Positions 31,364 to 41,158 of a stretch of DNA of 64,000 nt are shown here, in pieces. The notes below the pieces were generated by a model. That model saw only the letters and a program-made list of their open reading frames with translations, did not search any database and had not been told where the DNA came from. The stretch is taken from assembly GCA_965248445.1 (NCBI GenBank), contig CBDFJG010000004.1:96001-160000 (forward strand). Direction: 5' to 3'. This DNA is from Planctomycetota bacterium. GTDB lineage: Bacteria; Planctomycetota; JAJSAM01; JAJVHW01. Each line of letters opens with the position of its first letter. Position 1 is the first letter of the stretch. A program made the position numbers and the translations under genes.

Positions 31364-31996
31364 TCACTTGGCAGCGTGGGTGCGATTCTCGCTCATCCGG
31401 CGCGCGCTCAGCCGGAACACGAAGTCGAGTGTCAGGTAGGCGAACACGATCAGCGCGAGCACGTACGCGCCGATCTTCACCTGGGTGGCCGAGGATGCCA
31501 GCGCTGTAAGCGTCGCGGAGGGTGCATCCGCGTCGTCCGGCACGCCGTACACGATGAACAGCAACAGGATGTTCTCGATCACATCGGCTATCAGCGCGAT
31601 GGCGCCGAGCACCGTGACCGGAATGCTCGCCGTGCGCCACCCACCGACACGCCGCGCTCCCACACGCGAGAGCGCACCCATCAGCGCGAGCGCGTAGAGC
31701 GTCATCACGCCGAAGAGGAGAGCGACGATGAAGTCGACCCACGTGGCGGTGGCGTAGAACGACCATGACGACGGACCGACCGACTCGAACACGTTGCGCA
31801 GATCGTCGGCCGTGTACCCACGCCACTGCATGTGTGGCCAGAGCGCCGGATCGACCCCGCCGCCCCACTGCAGGAGCTGCATCGAGAAGAAGATCAGCGC
31901 AGCGAACACGAACGCAAACATCGCGGAGACGAACGCTGCGAGGACCACGCGCTGCCACGCTCTGAAGCGTGTCGGGTCCACGTCAAGCAGTCTCAT
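31364..31996 (-). CDS. Hypothetical membrane protein (~4 TM)
   Basis: Hydrophobic segments and an ADVIEN motif; start overlaps the end of the DUF2235 gene. Confidence 0.65.
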   Translation of the reverse strand: MRLLDVDPTRFRAWQRVVLAAFVSAMFAFVFAALIFFSMQLLQWGGGVDPALWPHMQWRGYTADDLRNVFESVGPSSWSFYATATWVDFIVALLFGVMTLYALALMGALSRVGARRVGGWRTASIPVTVLGAIALIADVIENILLLFIVYGVPDDADAPSATLTALASSATQVKIGAYVLALIVFAYLTLDFVFRLSARRMSENRTHAAK

Positions 31997-33602
31997 CGCC
32001 GCCTCCTTCAAGCTGAGCGATCGACCGCACATCGACACACAACATGCGGTGGGCCCAGTGATCCTCGAATACCCGGTGCATCGCGCGCTTCATGCGCGCT
32101 CCCAGCCAGAGCAGCGCGACGAGCGCTCCGAGCACCAGGTACACCGCGGCCCAGCCATCGATCACCAGCGGGCGCGTGCGCCGGACGATGTCGTCCAGGA
32201 AATCGATCGGGCTCACCCACTCCGCCGCGGTCCACGCTGCGGCCACAGGCCCGGCCAGCGGAGAGCGCGACCCCTCGGTTTCCAGTCCGTCCGGCGTGAG
32301 AATCAGTGCGATCACGACTGCAGCAACGAGGAGCAGGACCGCCCAATACACCGCGCGGTAGGCGCACCGCTGTCTCGTCACGCGGCGCAGCGGCGGGTCC
32401 GTGTCCTCGTCGGAGGACTCGATCTGTGCGACCAGGTGATGCACGTCGTCGCTGACCGGTGGATCGTGCGGCGTCGACACGACGGTGCACTTCTCGGGGA
32501 GATTGCCGGGCGCGTAGGCGCCCATGCTCCCGACGATCCGGTCCACGACCGAGCGGTGGATGCACACCTCGCCGGCGCCGGACTCCTGGCGGAGAGCCGC
32601 GACATCGCGCGGGCGCCAGCGATAGAACTGGGAGACCCCTCCGCGCGAATCGTACAGACGATCCTGCACGTCCCACGTGTCCCGCGCGCGCGTGAGCGCG
32701 CCGTCACGCAGGGACAGGCCGCAAAACTTCGCCCGGTCCATCATCCAGACCAGTGACGGCGCCGCAAGGCCCTGCCGCGGGTATCCGCCACCGACATTCG
32801 AGTGCGCGCCTGCGAACCAGACCTGCTCACAGTGCGGCGAGCCGTCCCCGGGCGTCTTCCACACCTTCGGCCGGAAGCTCGCGCGCTCCTCGTCCAGAGC
32901 CAGCGCCTGGAACGAGTGATTGACGTGCGGCGAGAGTTTGTGGTCGTGGAACTCGACATAGAGAACCTGGTCGACGGCCCAGCGCATCGCGTCGAACGGG
33001 CCGCCGAGAGCACTCACCGTGTCCCACACCCCGAGGCACTCGATGGTGCCGGAATGCGCGCGGTCTCGCCGGAATGCGAACGCGTGCGACTCCTTCTCCG
33101 CGCGCAGCGGCCGCAGCGTGCGATCGAACCAGCCCCGTTTCAGCGCGGCGACCTGCTTGACTCGGCGCTTGGTGATGTGGTCGCGCCGATACGCCGCGAA
33201 CGCCTCGTTCGCGGCACGACCGACCGGATCGTCGGACAGCTCTTTGTAGTCCTGCCAGCGCGCCACGCCGCAGAGCCCGATGAGCCCCGACAACGAGCGC
33301 ACCGTGAACGCGCCGCGGCTGAACCCGAACAGGAAGATGCGATCGTCCTTTTCATAGTGGCGCACCAGGAACTCGTAGAGGTCGCGGATGTTCTTGTTCA
33401 GACCGAATCCGAACGCGCCGCCGAGAAGCTGCCTCGGCCGGAGCTTCGACGTGCCGACGCCGTCGTCGTAGGCGGCGATCTGCGTCACGCCCGCTCCATC
33501 GTCGCCGGGGAGAATCTCCTGATACAGGCGCCAGACGTTCGTCGGCCGGCCCACGCCGCCCTGGTTCCACGTCCCGTCCGAACAGAGGATGATGTTCTTC
33601 AC
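31983..33602 (-). CDS. DUF2235 alpha/beta-hydrolase (Tle1-like lipase domain) with C-terminal TM helices
   Basis: CSDGTWN, TNVWRL, YDDGVGT, GFSRGA, GVWDTV, ALALDEER and WFAGAHSNVGGGY. Confidence 0.9.
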   Translation of the reverse strand: MKNIILCSDGTWNQGGVGRPTNVWRLYQEILPGDDGAGVTQIAAYDDGVGTSKLRPRQLLGGAFGFGLNKNIRDLYEFLVRHYEKDDRIFLFGFSRGAFTVRSLSGLIGLCGVARWQDYKELSDDPVGRAANEAFAAYRRDHITKRRVKQVAALKRGWFDRTLRPLRAEKESHAFAFRRDRAHSGTIECLGVWDTVSALGGPFDAMRWAVDQVLYVEFHDHKLSPHVNHSFQALALDEERASFRPKVWKTPGDGSPHCEQVWFAGAHSNVGGGYPRQGLAAPSLVWMMDRAKFCGLSLRDGALTRARDTWDVQDRLYDSRGGVSQFYRWRPRDVAALRQESGAGEVCIHRSVVDRIVGSMGAYAPGNLPEKCTVVSTPHDPPVSDDVHHLVAQIESSDEDTDPPLRRVTRQRCAYRAVYWAVLLLVAAVVIALILTPDGLETEGSRSPLAGPVAAAWTAAEWVSPIDFLDDIVRRTRPLVIDGWAAVYLVLGALVALLWLGARMKRAMHRVFEDHWAHRMLCVDVRSIAQLEGGGDETA

Positions 33603-35647
33603 GGCGTCCCGCCTGGGGCGCGGAACGGCTGGGACTCCGACAGCCTTTCGGTTTCTCCGCTCACGACGATCTTGTACTCCGTTCCAGCTGACGCTGCTTG
33701 AGGGAACCCCCAAGCAACCGTCCACTGCTGCTTGCCGCCCGAACACCCGGTCATCGCCACCGCCAGCGACGGTCCGGCGTCCGTCTCCAGCAACCGCCAC
33801 GCTCCCCCCGACACGCGAGAGTGGACCGCGGCAGCGGGCGCGGCCACGACACGTCCGTCCGCGTCCTGCGGCGAGATCACGAAGGTGTGCAGCCTCACGG
33901 CCCGTGGCCGGACGGCACCGACCAGTTCAACGAGTTCGTCGACTCCGTCCGGGGTCCCCGGGGCATCGCAGGCGTTCGACGACTTGAACCGGCGTCGGAG
34001 GAGTCCCGGGGAGTGTCCGAAGCGAAGCGCCTCCCCTGTGCCGGCGGTACCGTCGCGCAGGTCGCGCGCCAGCGCGTGGTACCGCCACGCGAGCCACCGG
34101 CTGCTGTCGCGGCCGTAGAGCGTCGACGCGCCCTCGTAGTGCTGGTGGTCGTACTCCTCGGGAGTCGCGAAGTAGGACAGGTATTCGTTCGCCAGGCCGA
34201 CGGGCCAGACGTCCGCCTCGGCGACGCCGAGGCCCTGCGCGACGGCACGCCGCACGCGCAACCCCGTGACCGTCGTCGCCTCGCCGGGGATGCTGACGAG
34301 CACCAGCCCGCCCAGGTCGTGGATGGCGAGCGGGACTTGTTCCGGCGGACCGGCGAGCGCGTCCACGATCACACTGAGCGGCTTGAGACACCGCCACCAC
34401 GACAGGCACAGATCCGCGGCGGGGAGCTTCGGGTACTGCGTCGGAGGCGACGGCCCCGTCATCCCCTCGAAACGCTCATCCGGCCACTTCGACGTGCGGC
34501 CGTCCTCCGCTCCGCCCTCGGCCGACGCGCCGATCATGACGTACGCCCCCGTGCGCCCCGGCTGTCCGGTCTCGTCGGTGAAGACACGGCCTTCGATCCG
34601 CTCGTAGCGCAACGCAGCCCGAACGGTAGACACGGTTCGCGTCCGCCCAGCCGACGCGAGGCCCGAGACGTGCACACCGAGCTCTTTGCCCAGCCGCACC
34701 GTCTCGTAGGCAGTCTGATCCTCCCATGCTGCCGAGACGTCGCCCTCCGCGCCGTTGAACAGCGCGACGACGGGCGGCTCGGGAGCGCTCGCCGCGAGAA
34801 GGAACTCGGCGTGATGCGCGGCCACGCCGAACAGCGCAGGTGTGTACACGGTTCCGCTCGGACCGATCGACGTCGGGTGCGCGGCCGCGAACGCGGCTAC
34901 CGCGAGCACGCGGCCGTCGGCGGCCCGTGCGGTGAGCACCCGCACCAGCGGATCGACCGCCTTGTAGGCGCGCGGGTCGGGGAACTCGGAGGACAGCGGG
35001 CCCACCGGCATGCGCGGGTTCCCGGCGATGATCTCCACGGCCTCCTCATTGGCATCGAACGGGGGCATGCTGCGGTTTCGGAACACGAGCGGCAGCTTGC
35101 TCTGCGACGTCCTCAGCTCTGCGGGCTCGGACACCAGGACGGCGTCGAGCACGGCGCGGGCAATGCGCTCGGCGAGGAAGTCGAAGAGCGCTCGGTCGAA
35201 CCCAGGCTGGACTCCAGCGAGCAGGTTGTACCCGGCGCTGCTCGAGTAGTTCGCGGGGCTGTGATGTGTGTGAGACGCCGCGACGACGATGCGCGCGCTG
35301 CCCAGGTGACGTCCGTGCGCGTCGAGCGTGACGAGCTCGGCGACGCGGTCCCGCAGACCCGCAGGAACTGCCCACAGGTCCGTCGCCACGAGTACGAGCG
35401 CCGTACCGTCAGGGGCCTCGACGTAGACCGCACGCGCGAACAGGCGGCCCCAGTGTCCGCGAGACACTTGCCCGGCTGTGGAGAAGCCCCCCATCGGAAT
35501 GCCCGGGAGCGGCGTGATGTCGACGCGCGCGGCTCCGGCGTGCAGCTGGCCACGGCCCGGCCACGCGACCGGCGCCGGAACTTCGCCGCGGATGCACGTG
35601 CACGCCGGGAGCAGCGCGGCCATCACGACGAAGGCCCACCGCGTCAC
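33599..35647 (-). CDS. Neutral/alkaline non-lysosomal ceramidase-family protein, exported
   Basis: LFARA, SHTHHSP, NRS, HPTS, GAEGDVS, PGEATT and GLANEYLSY...EYDHQHYEGASTLYG; lipobox-like LPAC. Confidence 0.88.
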   Translation of the reverse strand: MTRWAFVVMAALLPACTCIRGEVPAPVAWPGRGQLHAGAARVDITPLPGIPMGGFSTAGQVSRGHWGRLFARAVYVEAPDGTALVLVATDLWAVPAGLRDRVAELVTLDAHGRHLGSARIVVAASHTHHSPANYSSSAGYNLLAGVQPGFDRALFDFLAERIARAVLDAVLVSEPAELRTSQSKLPLVFRNRSMPPFDANEEAVEIIAGNPRMPVGPLSSEFPDPRAYKAVDPLVRVLTARAADGRVLAVAAFAAAHPTSIGPSGTVYTPALFGVAAHHAEFLLAASAPEPPVVALFNGAEGDVSAAWEDQTAYETVRLGKELGVHVSGLASAGRTRTVSTVRAALRYERIEGRVFTDETGQPGRTGAYVMIGASAEGGAEDGRTSKWPDERFEGMTGPSPPTQYPKLPAADLCLSWWRCLKPLSVIVDALAGPPEQVPLAIHDLGGLVLVSIPGEATTVTGLRVRRAVAQGLGVAEADVWPVGLANEYLSYFATPEEYDHQHYEGASTLYGRDSSRWLAWRYHALARDLRDGTAGTGEALRFGHSPGLLRRRFKSSNACDAPGTPDGVDELVELVGAVRPRAVRLHTFVISPQDADGRVVAAPAAAVHSRVSGGAWRLLETDAGPSLAVAMTGCSGGKQQWTVAWGFPQAASAGTEYKIVVSGETERLSESQPFRAPGGTP

Positions 35648-38600
35648 TCAGCGGTCCTCCGCACGCATGGGCAGCGGTACGTGTTGCACGCGCGGGTGAC
35701 GGCCGGGCCGGACCTCCACGACCACGAAGCCGCGGTGTTTGTCCTGCACGTCCCCCAGCGAGTTCAGACGGGCAAGGCGGATCTCGTCGGTCGCGGGGTG
35801 CGCAACCTCCTCCCACCACGGCGGCTGCCCGCCGCTCGACACGCGGAAGAACCGGTTCCACGGCGCGCCGCTCGGGAACGACTCGTCCACCGGCTGCCCG
35901 TGGAACGGATCGCCGTTCTTGCTCCAGCGCCCGCGGGCATAGACGTCGTTGTGCCCCTCGAACACGCGGAATGCGTAGTTGCCGGCCGGGTCGCCGGTAC
36001 CTGTCGAGATCGCGTGATCTCGCACCGCGGCGAGCAGTTCACGGGCGCCGCTCGCGTGGCCGTCCTTCTCGTTGAAGAGCTGCCACTCCATCAGTTCGCC
36101 GCGCTCGAAGAACTTGCTGCGCAGGAGGAGATGGATGCCCGGCGTCACTCCCGGCCAGATCAGACCGACCGTCGGTGCGTGCCCCAGCCCGGCGTACCCG
36201 CCGGACCACGTCTGCCAGAACGCCTCGACCTGGTCGTAGCGGCCCCAGTCGCGATCCCGCCCTTCGAGCTTGTCGCCGACCGTGTCGCTCTCCCTGGGAT
36301 ACGCACCGCGCGGATCGTGGTGCAGGAAGAGGGTCGTTCCCCGCATCGCCGACGACGAACCGTCCACCGCCTCGCGGATCGCCGCGCCGCTGTCCATGGC
36401 GGCACGGGCCCACAGCACGTCGTTCGACTCGACGCCGCCGCCGCCGTAGAAGACGGCCGGACCGAAGCCGTCCCGTGTGGTCCACGGGTGCGCGTACGTG
36501 TTCAGTCCCACGAACTGGTGTCCGCGGTACGAGAACGAGAAGTTGAGCGGCCCCAGGTGACTCTGCCACTCGAGGAGCCCGTCGTAGACCGGCCAGAGGA
36601 GGGGGTTGTAGTACTCCTCCGCGCGCTCCTCGATGGGCACGCCGGGACGCACCCATGCGCGTGTCGGCGCCGGGGGCGCGAAGATCGTGGGCAGCCACTC
36701 GTAGAACGTGCGCTCGAACCAGTCGAGTCCCGTCACGCCGTCGATCAGGCGGCCGATGAACGCGATGAATGCCGCGGGCGTCCCGGCTGTCTGCACGTAC
36801 CCGTCGTGGTTCCCGGGCACCGCGAACACGGGCTTCCTGATCTTCGCGAACTGCGACTTGATCGACAGGAACTCACCGCGATCCTCGATCTCGGCCCGGT
36901 CGGGAGAGAACAGATCGCACAAGAGGCCGTTGCCCAGGTCCCACGGACGCTTGTTCGGGCGCGTGTACGGGGAGCTCGCCCCGGACAGTCCCAGCGCGGA
37001 GGAGATGAAGTTCGCGGGATTGCTGCCGGCGCGCCCGTCGGCCACGTCCCCCGCGAGCACGACGAACTTCGCCCGATCCACCAGCGCGCGAAGTTGCTCG
37101 CAGCGAGTCGTGCCCGAGACGTGGGACCACGGGTCGTCCGCCGCGTCGTCGTAGGCCTTCTCGAGGGTCGGATCGAGCATCCGCGCGAAGTCGTTGAGCG
37201 CGCGCGGGTCGCGCGAGAACTGCAGGTCTGCGCCGACGACGTATACGAAGCCGCCGTCCCCGCTCTCCTCGCGCAGCAGACCGCAGACGCGACCCTGACC
37301 GACGTCCGGCGGACGGAGCGGGGCGATGTCTCGACGGGCTCCGAGGACCGCCAGCTGCCGCGTTCCGGGCCGTGCGGCACCCCGGTTCGTCTGGGGCGTC
37401 GAGAAGCGCGCGTCGTCGAACGCGACCGGGCACGCATTCGCCCGTGCGCTCCAGACCGTTCGTAGTGCATCGCCCAGCCGCGCCACGGCGCCGAGACTGT
37501 CCGAGTCGAGCCGCACCCATCCGTCGCGCACCACGGAGCAGTGGGCGATTTCGTCAGCCAGGTCATCGAAGGCGTCGGACACCCGCTCGAGCAGGTCCCG
37601 CCGGTACGGCAGCTGATACCACGTCTCGACGGCATCCGCGGCGCGGCGCATCCACGCGGCCGCGGCGTCGCGTTGCTCGACCACCTCGGGGGCGCCGGCA
37701 CCGGCCGCTGCGGTGATGTACACCGAAGCGTCGTCGAGACGGCCCTCGGCGAGGTACTGCGCGAACAGCGCGAGAGTGTCCGGAGGGTCGTACCCGACTC
37801 CTGAGTCGTCGAGCACGCGCACGCGCGGGACGATACGGACGTCGTAGAACCCCTCCTCCACCTCGCGGCGGCTCACCTCGTCGTAGCGTGACGCGTCCGC
37901 GTCGGCCGGCACGAGCACCGAGCCGCCGGGGAGGTCTCCGGCGTAGCTCGCAGGCACGCCGCAGTGCAGCATCACGAACGAGTAGACGCGGTTGACCTCC
38001 GGGTTGGCGAGCGTCAGCTCCGTGGCCTCGTCCGTCAGCGACTGCACGCTCACCGCACCGAGATCCGCTGCCTCTTCGGTCCTCGTGAACGCATCGCCTC
38101 CGCCGGCTGAACGGCGCCCGAAGTAGTTGCCGTTCGTCACCGGAACGGCCGGTTCAGGAAACGCGAGCTCCGGCTCCCCGTCCGCGCGGCGGCTCTGCAC
38201 AAAGAATGCGAGGCGCGCTGTCAGGAACTTGGCGCGGTGTTTCGGGTGGAACTCCTCGATCAGCGAGTGCCCGTCGCCCAGTCCGGACCGCCGCGACGCG
38301 CCCTTCGACAGCGGCCCCGTCCACGGCCGCCCCTCTCGCGACGACTCGGTCCGGATGCGGTCCAGTTCCCGCCACGCCGCGTCCACATCCGTCAGTTGGT
38401 CGTCCGCGAGCAGGTACGGATCCTGCAAGACCACGGGGGTGACCCACGCGATCTGTGTCGCGTCGTCGAGCGCCGCCCACGGGGGGATGCCGCCGCCAGT
38501 CAGTCCTCCGGGCGTCGGCACTGCGTTCCCATCCCACGCCGACGCCGACACGAGCGCGGGCGAGAACAGCCGCGGATATGCCTGCGGTGCCGGTTCGTCG

Positions 38601-38866
38601 CGGTGTGTGAACGGGGAGAGCCGCTGCTTGAGATACAGCGGCTCGTTGGCGAGCGTCACGTACGCATCGACCGACGTGCGGCCGGCCGACGAGTACTCGG
38701 CGGTGCGGCGCTCGGCCCGGCGGCCGATGTGTCTGAGCACAGCGTCGGCCGGACCCTGCATGTCGGGGTACGGACGAGCGTCGCCACCGGTCGCGCAAGC
38801 GGCCGTCGTGAGCGCCGCGAGAGCGCCCGTTGCCAGCGCAGCCCACGCGCGGCACCCACGGCCCAT
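35648..38866 (-). CDS. Large lipoprotein with a C-terminal calcineurin-like metallophosphoesterase domain
   Basis: Lipobox TAAC; ADLQ, GDVAD, VPGNHDG, HHDP and GHND motifs. Confidence 0.8.
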   Translation of the reverse strand: MGRGCRAWAALATGALAALTTAACATGGDARPYPDMQGPADAVLRHIGRRAERRTAEYSSAGRTSVDAYVTLANEPLYLKQRLSPFTHRDEPAPQAYPRLFSPALVSASAWDGNAVPTPGGLTGGGIPPWAALDDATQIAWVTPVVLQDPYLLADDQLTDVDAAWRELDRIRTESSREGRPWTGPLSKGASRRSGLGDGHSLIEEFHPKHRAKFLTARLAFFVQSRRADGEPELAFPEPAVPVTNGNYFGRRSAGGGDAFTRTEEAADLGAVSVQSLTDEATELTLANPEVNRVYSFVMLHCGVPASYAGDLPGGSVLVPADADASRYDEVSRREVEEGFYDVRIVPRVRVLDDSGVGYDPPDTLALFAQYLAEGRLDDASVYITAAAGAGAPEVVEQRDAAAAWMRRAADAVETWYQLPYRRDLLERVSDAFDDLADEIAHCSVVRDGWVRLDSDSLGAVARLGDALRTVWSARANACPVAFDDARFSTPQTNRGAARPGTRQLAVLGARRDIAPLRPPDVGQGRVCGLLREESGDGGFVYVVGADLQFSRDPRALNDFARMLDPTLEKAYDDAADDPWSHVSGTTRCEQLRALVDRAKFVVLAGDVADGRAGSNPANFISSALGLSGASSPYTRPNKRPWDLGNGLLCDLFSPDRAEIEDRGEFLSIKSQFAKIRKPVFAVPGNHDGYVQTAGTPAAFIAFIGRLIDGVTGLDWFERTFYEWLPTIFAPPAPTRAWVRPGVPIEERAEEYYNPLLWPVYDGLLEWQSHLGPLNFSFSYRGHQFVGLNTYAHPWTTRDGFGPAVFYGGGGVESNDVLWARAAMDSGAAIREAVDGSSSAMRGTTLFLHHDPRGAYPRESDTVGDKLEGRDRDWGRYDQVEAFWQTWSGGYAGLGHAPTVGLIWPGVTPGIHLLLRSKFFERGELMEWQLFNEKDGHASGARELLAAVRDHAISTGTGDPAGNYAFRVFEGHNDVYARGRWSKNGDPFHGQPVDESFPSGAPWNRFFRVSSGGQPPWWEEVAHPATDEIRLARLNSLGDVQDKHRGFVVVEVRPGRHPRVQHVPLPMRAEDR

Positions 38867-38948
38867 CGAGTTCCCTCCCCCGACTTCTATACCCCGCCGT
38901 GAGCCGGGGATCAACGCCCAGAGTGAATCGAGAAGGCCCGGGTTGATT

Positions 38949-38981
38949 CAAAACGGCCCGGAGCCGTGTGGCTCCGGGCCG
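38949..38981 (-). terminator. Intrinsic terminator after the selenoprotein gene
   Basis: 12-bp stem cggcccggagcc/ggctccgggccg followed by TTTT on the minus strand. Confidence 0.75.
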
Positions 38982-39004
38982 CCGTTGCTCGCAAGCGGGA
39001 GGAG

Positions 39005-39937
39005 TTACTCGGCGGCCTCGGCCTTCTTCTCCTTGAGCAGCGCGAACAGCTCGGTGAGGCGCCCCTCGAGGTCCGTCTTCCTCAAGGCGGTCTTGAGCGA
39101 CGACAGGAGCTTGTTCGCCTTGGCGAACTCCTCGTTCCCGATCATCTCCTCGGCGTTGTCGAGTTCCTCGCCGGCCTTCTCGAGAAGCGTCGCCTTGTGG
39201 GCGTCGATCATCTCGACGATCTTGTCGCCCTTCTTGAGGAGCTTCTTCGAGTCCTTGTTGAACTGGAGCAGCGCCTTGGCGATGCCCTTGTCTTTCATGA
39301 CTTCGGCGGCCTTGATCTTCGCGTCCTTGAGGGTGCTCAGATGTTTGCGGGACAGGCCCTTGCCGTGCTTCTTCTCCAGCTCCTCACGCATCTTCGTGAC
39401 GAGCTCGATCATCTTCTTGACCGGCTGGCTACCGCCCAAGCCACGCATCTGCTTCAGCGTGTGGGGATCGACGATCGCAGTGTAGGGGATGGACTGCGTC
39501 TCGTTATAGGACGGCGCCTTGGACTTACGGAGCGCGTAGATGTCCTCGACCGTCAGCCCGGGGAACTCGACCAGGTACTTGACCGGCTCGCCGTTCTCGT
39601 CGACCGCATCGTACTGAGCGGCCTTCTTGTCCTTCGCGTCAAGGCCCTTCTTGAGTTCCTGGAGGGACATCACCTCGACGGTGTTCTCGTTGGCGAAGTC
39701 GATGTACTTGTCGTTTTGCAGCACAGAACTGTGCATGCCCCAGCAGGGGTTTCAATAGAAGCCGTGGACGTGCACCACCATGGGTACGTTCAGCATCTTG
39801 GCTTCTTCGACGGCCGCGTCCCACGACTTGGCGTAGGTGACCGACGGCTTGATCTTGTGCTTCTTTTCCTTGGCCTGCACCACGCCGCCGGTGGCGACGA
39901 GGAGCGCGGCGAGCACGAGTGTGGTGCGTCCGAGCAT
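39005..39937 (-). CDS. Exported thioredoxin-fold selenoprotein (UxxC), ~310 aa
   Basis: ORFs 39752-39937 and 39005-39736 are in one frame across a single TGA, reading HGFY-U-NPC-WG; signal peptide; IPYTAIVDP; downstream SECIS-like hairpin. Confidence 0.85.
39718..39738 (-). promoter_or_regulatory. Putative bacterial SECIS element
   Basis: mRNA GCA-U-GCACA-GUUC-UGUGC-UGC: bulged U, 5-bp upper stem, G-first loop 22 nt after the UGA. Confidence 0.75.
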
Positions 39938-40168
39938 GTTGTTCTCCTGCCGATCGCGCGGGCCGCGATCCTGACTGCTGGGTCTTCTGTCGAGTGAGTC
40001 CCGTCCCTCGCCGGGCCGCCCCCGTCATCAAGTGGGGGGGCGCTCCGATTCGTGGCTAGGACGCCTGAGGCCGGGGCAGAGTTCCCCTGGGCTCCCCGCG
40101 AGTGTACCGCACGCCCGATCCGCCCCTGAGAGGCGGTCGGCGGCCTCGGATCGGGACCGGATGCAGCC

Positions 40169-41158
40169 TCACGGGCGCCGCAGGTCGTGAGCGGAGCCCT
40201 CCTCGTTGCGGTCAGTCGCCGGGGCGGGCGCGGGGGAGAGTGCCGAGAGCCTTGCACGGTCCTCGGTGGACAGCCGGATCTCCGCGGCCCCGAGGAGATC
40301 GTCGAGCTGGGCGACGCTGCGGGCCCCGAGCAGCGGTGCCGTGACCGCCGGGTGGCTCGCGACCCACGCCACCGCGAGCGCCGCCGGATGCTGCCCCATC
40401 TCGCGCGCGGCTGCTGCGAACGCGCGCGCGCTGCTGGCATACACATCTCCACCGTAACGCGTCTTGTACATCGCGTTCGTGGCGAGCCGGCCGACCGCCT
40501 CCCCGTCGCCCGAGTACTTCCCGCTGAGGTAGCCACCGCCGAGCGGACTGTACGGGAACACGCCGAGCTGCTCTGCCGACGCCATCGGCAGGATCTCGGA
40601 CTCCGCCTGCCGCTTCAGCAGGTTGTACATCGGCTGGATCGCGGCGACCGGGAGGTAGTCGCGCAGCGCCGCGAGACCGAGCGCTTTCGACGTCTGCCAT
40701 GCACTGAAGTTGCTGACGGCGGGATAGAGGATCTTGCCGCTGCGCACGAGGTCCTCGACTGCGCGGAGCGTCTCCTCGAGGTCAGTCACGTCGTCCCAGC
40801 GGTGCAGGTAGAAGATGTCGATTCGGTCGGTGCGCAGCCGCGCAAGGCTCGCGTCCACCGCGCGCGTGAGGTGATACAGGCTGCTCCCGCGATCGCTCGG
40901 GCCGGGACCCGTCGGGAAGTACGCCTTGGTCGCCAGCACGATCTCGTCGCGGCAGCCGCGGACGAGGTCGCCCAGGATCTCCTCCGAGCGGCCCTTGTTG
41001 TAGATGTCGGCCGTGTCGAAGTGGTTGATGCCCGCCTCGCGACACCGCGCGAACAAGCGGGCGGACTCGTCGACGTCGGCGTCTCCGCCGAACGACATCG
41101 TCCCGAACGCGAGCCGTGAGACGCGCACGCCGGTCCGCCCAAGCGGAACGGTGTCCAT
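40169..41158 (-). CDS. Aldo/keto reductase
   Basis: FGTMSFG, FDTADIY, LATK, LRTDRIDIFYLH and YSPLGGG. Confidence 0.95.
   Translation of the reverse strand: MDTVPLGRTGVRVSRLAFGTMSFGGDADVDESARLFARCREAGINHFDTADIYNKGRSEEILGDLVRGCRDEIVLATKAYFPTGPGPSDRGSSLYHLTRAVDASLARLRTDRIDIFYLHRWDDVTDLEETLRAVEDLVRSGKILYPAVSNFSAWQTSKALGLAALRDYLPVAAIQPMYNLLKRQAESEILPMASAEQLGVFPYSPLGGGYLSGKYSGDGEAVGRLATNAMYKTRYGGDVYASSARAFAAAAREMGQHPAALAVAWVASHPAVTAPLLGARSVAQLDDLLGAAEIRLSTEDRARLSALSPAPAPATDRNEEGSAHDLRRP

Follow-up and report, generated by a model that had tools for sequence, protein, structure and literature searches.

Within a 64,000-nucleotide stretch of a Planctomycetota contig (hereafter the window), one minus-strand frame is broken by a TGA at the position where a thioredoxin-like protein would carry the first cysteine of a C-x-x-C site. 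This locus raises the question of whether it is a damaged or split gene or encodes a selenoprotein and, in the latter case, what selenocysteine (Sec) might do outside the cytoplasm. The sequence-only reading of the window had proposed an extracytoplasmic redox selenoprotein. Translation yields a single 310-codon frame (39937-39005, minus strand), the lone internal stop of which is the TGA at 39752-39754, codon 62, within a U-N-P-C site, exactly as had been read from the letters. Standard ORF calling without read-through returns ORFs of 61 and 243 amino acids. The features of the locus are:

39005-39937, minus strand: coding sequence, 310 amino acids, with predicted Sec at position 62; TAA end at 39005-39007; single copy in the genome
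39944-39948, minus strand: likely ribosome-binding site AGGAG, 6 nt 5' of the ATG, read from the sequence
39872-39937, minus strand: predicted signal peptide, residues 1-22, ending in V-Q-A; 68 of 69 relatives share a hydrophobic leader; modelled with low pLDDT
39365-39850, minus strand: thioredoxin-fold domain, approximately residues 30-191, DsbH/Thioredoxin_7-like by model, structural and profile matches
39752-39754, minus strand: in-frame TGA, predicted selenocysteine 62, position one of U-N-P-C; 49 TGA, 20 Cys and 0 other among 69 relatives; Sec machinery in the genome
39743-39745, minus strand: Cys65, predicted resolving cysteine; Cys in 69/69 genomic relatives, a count for which one of the two search patterns demanded that Cys
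39718-39738, minus strand: SECIS-type hairpin, class A, with its loop at 39726-39729, 22 nt past the UGA
39488-39655, minus strand: family-specific insertion, residues 95-150 (helix, beta-hairpin, two helices), by alignment and model
39485-39487, minus strand: Pro151 at the putative thioredoxin cis-proline position, preceded by Ile; invariant column
39008-39364, minus strand: Lys-rich five-helix C-terminal domain, residues 192-310, by model; last three helices packed like TPR units
38950-38981, minus strand: probable intrinsic terminator, 12-bp perfect stem plus four U, by folding

Codon 62 is paired with a selenocysteine machinery

The host genome (5.4 Mb in 4 contigs, 92% complete) was searched for the selenocysteine genes, and all were found above their cut-offs: selA (502 bits), selB (336 bits), selD (386 bits, with an in-frame TGA of its own) and a tRNA-Sec (68 bits), located at unlinked places. 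The tRNA with anticodon TCA is this tRNA-Sec, and the tRNA-Trp carries CCA. Among 69 distinct copies from GTDB loci, codon 62 is TGA in 49, TGC in 17 and TGT in 3, with no other codon, although the search patterns favour close relatives and cysteine-free members would escape this count. A second set drawn from genomes, which overlaps with the first and cannot be added to it, comprises 28 TGA and 11 Cys copies (n = 39, including this gene and one duplicate). In agreement with the proposal that the TGA stands in for the first cysteine, genomic relatives have TGA or Cys there and never Trp.

One sample, possibly the origin of this DNA, is represented by two public runs whose contigs show zero letter differences to the stretch and keep the TGA, with neither TGC nor TGG in its place. 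Among 11 public runs listed with the sequence none is of RNA, and one run labelled metatranscriptomic, probably DNA, contained only short, diverged pieces. Complementarily, a genome-wide scan for stop read-through placed x-x-C after 22 of 219 TGA candidates, compared with 2 of 250 TAG and 0 of 35 TAA candidates. Judged by machinery and conservation, Sec is almost certainly inserted at UGA 62.

Two SECIS designs accompany the TGA codon

The hairpin behind codon 62 has exactly the geometry drawn earlier: a 3-bp stem, a bulged U, a 5-bp stem and a G-first loop of 4 nt, 22 nt past the UGA (-9.9 kcal/mol). Every feature of the bacterial SECIS consensus, that is a loop of 3-9 nt with G in its first two positions, a stem of at least 4 bp, a spacing of 16-37 nt and an energy of -7.5 or below (PMC13188914), is present in it according to our own script, used in place of bSECISearch. 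On its own, the hairpin is no more stable than shuffled sequences (z -0.74); its significance comes from its tie to TGA relatives and from compensatory changes rather than from its own stability. A loose pattern (own script: GG/GU loop, stem of at least 4 bp, 16-37 nt past the codon) matched 49/49 TGA copies versus 8/20 Cys copies and, with the energy limit applied, 34/49 versus 5/20. Because 97 of 250 TAG controls also match the loose pattern, the hairpins of Cys copies lie at background.

Two designs can be told apart. Class A, to which this gene and 18 copies belong, carries its tetraloop at about +22; in class B, with 31 copies, the loop measures six bases and sits at +26. The class B design is marked by CAT for His69 in 31 of 49 TGA copies versus 1 of 20 Cys copies, and by TCT at codon 70 in 30/49 versus 0/20, codons that stand out against these GC-rich genes. 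In class A (n = 20), 93% of cells are paired, compared with 19-53% after sliding the partners against each other. At the loop-closing position, 8 of the 20 have G-C, 6 have C-G and 4 have A-U, changes that alter residue 70 as well. Four of the eight hairpin pairs are invariant, which conserved His and Val codons explain too.

The model shows a thioredoxin fold with an insertion and a helical tail

An AlphaFold model, computed from 36 aligned sequences with Cys in place of Sec (pLDDT 93.7, pTM 0.85), confidently predicts a thioredoxin fold, a mixed beta-sheet in which the redox motif opens a helix, and structure prediction thereby bore out the fold read from the sequence. Following a disordered leader, the modelled chain forms a strand at 53-59, and residue 62 opens the helix at 63-73. 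The 55-residue insertion (95-150) is followed by Pro151, just before the strand at 152-156, and five helices run from 197 to 309. A chain break at codon 62 would separate the active-site helix from the first core strand of the fold. P151 is the sole invariant column of the 36 aligned sequences, with Ile in front of it in 47 of 66 relatives, and His58, Gly59, Phe60, Trp66 and His69 form a strongly conserved surface round the active site. The signal peptide suggested earlier stands as a prediction: by hydropathy alone, a hydrophobic stretch, here running to V-Q-A, occupies the same place in 68/69 relatives.

The best structural match is DsbH of Chlamydia (2ju5; Z 12.6, rmsd 3.0, 123 aligned residues, 19% identity), followed by the exported DsbD-gamma-like domain 3f9u (Z 12.0) and then by AGR3 and UAS domains. 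Foldseek agrees, listing DsbD gamma and YbbN too, and thioredoxin-fold chains fill the match lists. A profile search against PDB sequences gave only weak matches to AGR2 and designed helices. The C-terminal domain, described from the sequence as Lys-rich and helical, contains 19% Lys and is helical in the model. Folded alone it reaches a pLDDT of 95.6, and Foldseek returned nothing for it at E <= 0.001. TPR units can be superposed on its last three helices at Z 8-9 (4ynw: Z 8.8, rmsd 1.2, 54 aligned; 2r5s: Z 8.4), scores that fall in the tool's range for common helical arrangements, and Pfam TPR models matched none of the 36 aligned members at E <= 0.01. A homodimer prediction with a Cys homologue scored 0.00, which is no evidence either way.

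Taken together, machinery, codon pairing, hairpin and fold support the proposed extracytoplasmic redox selenoprotein, and the frame very likely encodes an exported selenoprotein of thioredoxin fold.

The family is planctomycetal and most of its listed members are cut in databases

Of 401 genomes from the phylum, 45 contain relatives at E <= 1e-20, counting the host genome, in which the gene is single-copy. All 44 other family genomes contain selA (43 over the cut-off) and 42 of them selB. Across the phylum sample, selA was matched in 288/401 genomes, and none of the 113 without a selA match carries the family; since these genomes are kin and not independent, we state this co-occurrence without a statistical test. 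A pattern scan of GTDB yielded 63 loci, 58 labelled as Planctomycetota or a subgroup, 5 as 'bacterium' and 0 as another phylum. A scan of contigs with patterns from a single protein had 117 matches, none confirmed, and closer alignment gave the loci. Viral contigs produced 75 pattern matches, none of them confirmed as relatives.

A search of the protein library matched 157 clusters at E <= 0.001. Among the 150 matches listed, 80 begin just past codon 62 and 20 stop just before it; the codon is covered by 26 with Cys, 9 of which read as generic thioredoxins, and by 6 that carry Ala, Ser, Gly or Asp there, the remaining 18 being fragments of other kinds. The expectation that annotation pipelines would split such a gene was thus realized, with 100 of the 150 listed relatives being halves cut at codon 62 and the gene's own downstream half listed in a public collection as a 243-amino-acid protein. 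Of the relatives examined there, the three that carry a name are called 'hypothetical protein'.

Several full-length relatives (P0030, P0039, P0053, P0057 and P0083) miss at least one cysteine of the active site, some of them both; in the alignment, at least four relatives of full length have neither, a loss that suggests use of the scaffold in a non-redox role. Judging by these cysteine-free relatives and by the 6 of the 150 matches listed in which Ala, Ser, Gly or Asp replaces residue 62, the scaffold can persist without redox chemistry. In the more distant relatives L020, L021 and P0144, the insertion is filled with Cys and His in a C..P.I.C..H pattern with an upstream His, possibly a metal site or structural disulfide absent from the present family; the active site of L020 and L021 likewise contains TGA.

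Selenocysteine and cysteine were exchanged repeatedly

A quick IQ-TREE phylogeny of 66 copies (unrooted; codon 62 and the 14 residues behind it masked; four short copies omitted) requires 7 changes of the Cys label, at least 6 of them forced by well-supported branches, and grouping all Cys copies in one clade is rejected (p-AU 4.4e-5). The change count was the same in a tree that included long-branch outgroups and the SECIS-coding residues, from which the four short copies were also omitted. Cys copies L056 and L101 are nested in Sec clades, and Cys copy L084 is sister to Sec copy L081 on the same contig, its hairpin retaining the stem but differing in one base of the loop. This pattern, on an unrooted tree, suggests several Sec-to-Cys reversions. 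Such reversion is rare in bacteria according to the review of the field (PMC13188914).

The gene stands alone

In the window, the gene is solitary, with an aldo-keto reductase upstream and a 1088-amino-acid ORF without a family match downstream. The dedicated terminator proposed for it can be upheld as probable: the hairpin behind the gene forms a strong stem (arms 38954-38965 and 38970-38981, 12 bp, perfect, z -4.23), but just four U follow it and a consensus terminator scan did not list it. No sigma-70-type promoter was found in 38700-40300. Further downstream, the region 31983-38914 (minus strand) holds three adjacent genes, namely the 1088-amino-acid ORF, which matches neither Pfam nor NCBIfam, a neutral ceramidase-like gene (PF04734) and a gene with a Tle1-like lipase domain (PF09994) and a C-terminal membrane region.

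Over 64 loci, no neighbour is conserved beyond small clades, and the neighbourhood therefore points to neither a substrate nor a link to DsbD. In one clade, Sec and Cys copies adjoin thioredoxin reductase (5/64 loci), the family gene lying between this gene and a fumarase (read from sequence), and three loci there have tandem Sec and Cys copies. Loci of this setting with tandem Sec and Cys copies are L075, L083 and L092 (also L041 and L042); tandem Sec copies occur in L063, L104 and L106. In five class A loci (L057, L060, L063, L099 and L106), an ORF of about 690 amino acids without an NCBIfam match lies 3' of the family gene.

A putative envelope reductase and its proposed electron source

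The sole DsbD membrane domain found in the genome belongs to a 631-amino-acid alpha-membrane-gamma protein that itself has a TGA at the first gamma cysteine:

G000:C1:397668-399560 (L117:826-2718), minus strand: DsbD with TGA at the first cysteine of the gamma domain

This DsbD probably carries selenocysteine. Its hairpin is strong but lacks a G in the first two loop positions. A query with this gamma domain matched in 21 of the 44 family genomes, the codon being TGA in 17 and Cys in 4, and the consensus SECIS pattern is missing in 7 of the 17 TGA-type matches. DsbB was not found in the genome, which, at 92% completeness, is weak evidence.

A Gly-Pro dipeptide in the active site and an Ile before the putative cis-proline are thioredoxin-like features of the reducing type. 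A reducing role is predicted for the family because its best match is DsbH, G-P occupies the motif in 51/69 relatives, Ile precedes the proline in 47/66, and the genome contains DsbD but no detected DsbB. Against this assignment, the motif of the present copy is N-P, not G-P. We consider it moderately probable that the whole mechanism is that of an exported Sec enzyme acting as an envelope disulfide reductase recharged by DsbD. In this mechanism, SelB would bind the hairpin and direct Sec to UGA 62, and the leader would guide the chain to the Sec translocon, with predicted cleavage after residue 22. By analogy with thioredoxin chemistry, the Sec62 selenolate would attack a disulfide or oxidised thiol of an envelope protein, and Cys65 would resolve the intermediate to a selenenylsulfide. 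Electrons from cytoplasmic thioredoxin would then reach the protein by way of DsbD, crossing its membrane, gamma and alpha domains in turn, the genes being unlinked. The insertion and helical tail likely pick the substrate or partner, which is the least certain step.

A different role, unlikely although worth weighing, is that of an envelope chaperedoxin or isomerase, in which the helical tail holds unfolded clients while Sec62 shields or reshuffles their cysteines, making the protein a periplasmic counterpart of CnoX. The layout of a thioredoxin domain followed by a helical tail speaks for it, as do the TPR-like overlay of the last three tail helices (4ynw, 2r5s) and a Foldseek match to E. 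coli YbbN/CnoX (3qou, E 7e-4). The cysteine-free relatives, which keep the scaffold, favour it over a dedicated-partner or peroxide role. However, the YbbN match has an rmsd of 13.5 and a TM score of 0.28, the tail alone lacks a Foldseek match at E <= 0.001, its Z scores are those of common helical arrangements, and Pfam TPR models recognize no aligned member at E <= 0.01.

More doubtful still is a dedicated redox partner of one envelope enzyme, for example in cytochrome c maturation or for a peroxidase or methionine sulfoxide reductase, or else a scavenger of peroxides or electrophiles. The conserved active-site surface and the conserved insertion would suit one specific ligand, 3f9u is annotated as cytochrome c biogenesis-related, a peroxiredoxin-like gene (read from sequence) comes next, 3' of the family gene, in 3/64 loci, and the many different exported U-x-x-C proteins of the genome suggest a division of labour. 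Genes for ccm, peroxidase or msr are never a conserved neighbour, though, and the model lacks a TlpA- or peroxiredoxin-type layout and has no AhpC-TSA or Redoxin match.

Finally, that the locus encodes no selenoprotein at all, being a nonsense mutation, an assembly error, two small genes (Met at 68 permits the separate 243-amino-acid ORF listed in databases, and the hairpin alone is unremarkable among shuffles) or a frame in which UGA means Trp, is very improbable given the codon pairing across many genera, the fold, the x-x-C excess after TGA, the tRNAs and the contigs, on which we rejected the Trp, pseudogene and two-gene readings.

Further selenoprotein candidates in the genome

About 19 of the 22 TGA-x-x-C candidates look like plausible redox genes, most with a hydrophobic leader. 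Including other motifs, the predicted selenoproteome amounts to roughly 25-30 candidate genes, again mostly with hydrophobic leaders. Of 21 selected candidates, none attains an NCBIfam cut-off, and Pfam finds thioredoxin, redoxin, deiodinase, DUF3179 and DUF1223 domains among them. The candidates (L124-L143) comprise TlpA-like proteins, Thioredoxin_7-like proteins with TPR or HEAT tails, two DUF3179 proteins, a DUF1223-transglutaminase fusion, a deiodinase-like protein, three AhpD-like C-x-x-U proteins and SelD.

Two exported proteins that resemble each other (G000:C4:680511-681347, plus strand, L143; G000:C1:333771-334718, minus strand) have a TGA directly past the predicted leader, then a Gly-rich linker, and a SECIS-like hairpin each. 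L143 has no Pfam or NCBIfam match, and the pair is possibly a new selenoprotein family. A long FG-GAP/ASPIC-like protein, read from sequence (G000:C3:875259-877697, plus strand), and a leucine-rich-repeat-like protein (C2:189332-189994, minus strand) also run through a TGA with a SECIS-like hairpin. At L119:1375-2727 (G000:C2), and also at L032, an exported formylglycine-generating-enzyme-like domain, with weak GldK/SenA/EgtB matches, is fused to a Cys-type thioredoxin domain related to the present family.

The host can likely respire oxygen, since a heme-copper oxidase subunit I was found (closest to CtaD, below the cut-off for the stretch scanned). Tentatively, and at a strength well short of the reductase proposal, Planctomycetota that respire oxygen may run a selenium-based reducing network in the envelope, with Sec in DsbD and about 15-20 exported thioredoxin-fold clients, and with repeated flips to Cys, often after tandem duplications that leave Sec and Cys copies side by side.

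Relation to known systems

No Pfam or NCBIfam 20.0 model attains its cut-off for the window protein, and the 36 aligned sequences give weak matches only. With DsbH (2ju5; NF043050), the family shares an exported thioredoxin fold and a C-x-x-C-type site. It differs from DsbH by Sec in most members, a 55-residue insertion, a 120-residue helical tail and an identity of only 19%; the DsbH model gives 16.7 bits against a cut-off of 190. A role in maintaining reducing conditions in the periplasm has been suggested for DsbH (PMC5193440).

Resemblance to the gamma domain of DsbD (Thioredoxin_7, PF13899) is seen in 20 of 36 aligned members at E <= 0.01, but the family is a free exported protein without fusion to a membrane domain, and the window protein reaches 16.8 bits against the PF13899 cut-off of 27. 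Like CnoX/YbbN (3qou, 3qdn), the family has a thioredoxin domain followed by a helical, possibly TPR-like one; unlike it, it has a leader peptide (68/69 relatives), a short five-helix tail and Sec, the whole-chain rmsd being 13.5. CnoX is reported to be cytoplasmic and to work with GroEL. A xenorhabdolysin match (15 bits versus 125) was set aside as a product of helical composition.

UxxC proteins of thioredoxin fold are the commonest catalogued kind of selenoprotein, with many entries in Table 1 of the review (PMC13188914). The set compared here comprised thioredoxin PF00085, thiol:disulfide interchange protein PF13098, TsoB NF045694, Trx7/PDZ NF041199, VPGUxxT NF041382/NF041383 and HUIPC NF047660. 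These entries share with our family a UGA at the first motif cysteine, a SECIS loop 16-37 nt downstream and Cys orthologues, but differ in motif context and domain layout. The window protein stays below the curated cut-offs of TsoB (15.5 bits versus 805), Trx7/PDZ, VPGUxxT, HUIPC and SaoT, and it matches no named NCBIfam selenoprotein family at E <= 0.001. The excerpts of the 2026 catalogue of 119 families (PMC13188914 Table 1) hold no matching entry, and the suspicion of an uncatalogued family is therefore sustained for Pfam, NCBIfam 20.0 and that table to this extent. We found no published description, and members may sit in BSepDB under a generic thioredoxin name. The family is new in itself and in its domain layout, within the well-known UxxC thioredoxin-fold kind. 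The main text of the review (PMC13188914) never uses the string 'Planct', and 'planctomycet' is likewise absent from the portions available of the BSepDB (PMC13326102) and deep-Sep (PMC12013277) papers.

Implications

The finding adds a well-supported family to the catalogue of bacterial selenoproteins and corrects a systematic annotation error, about two-thirds of the listed database relatives being halves cut at the Sec codon. Natural Sec/Cys pairs, some within one genome, together with two SECIS designs make the benefit of selenium outside the cytoplasm testable. The same review holds that aerobes seldom keep selenoproteins (PMC13188914); if the network reading is true, it would contradict both this view and the rarity of Sec-to-Cys replacement in bacteria. 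The locus also points to a large exported selenoproteome, DsbD included, in the Planctomycetota, a phylum unmentioned in the main texts of the review and, in the portions available, of BSepDB. Overall, the single gene is ordinary in kind, while a DsbD of the Sec type, a pair of SECIS designs and repeated switching between Sec and Cys make it a good handle on this exported selenoproteome.
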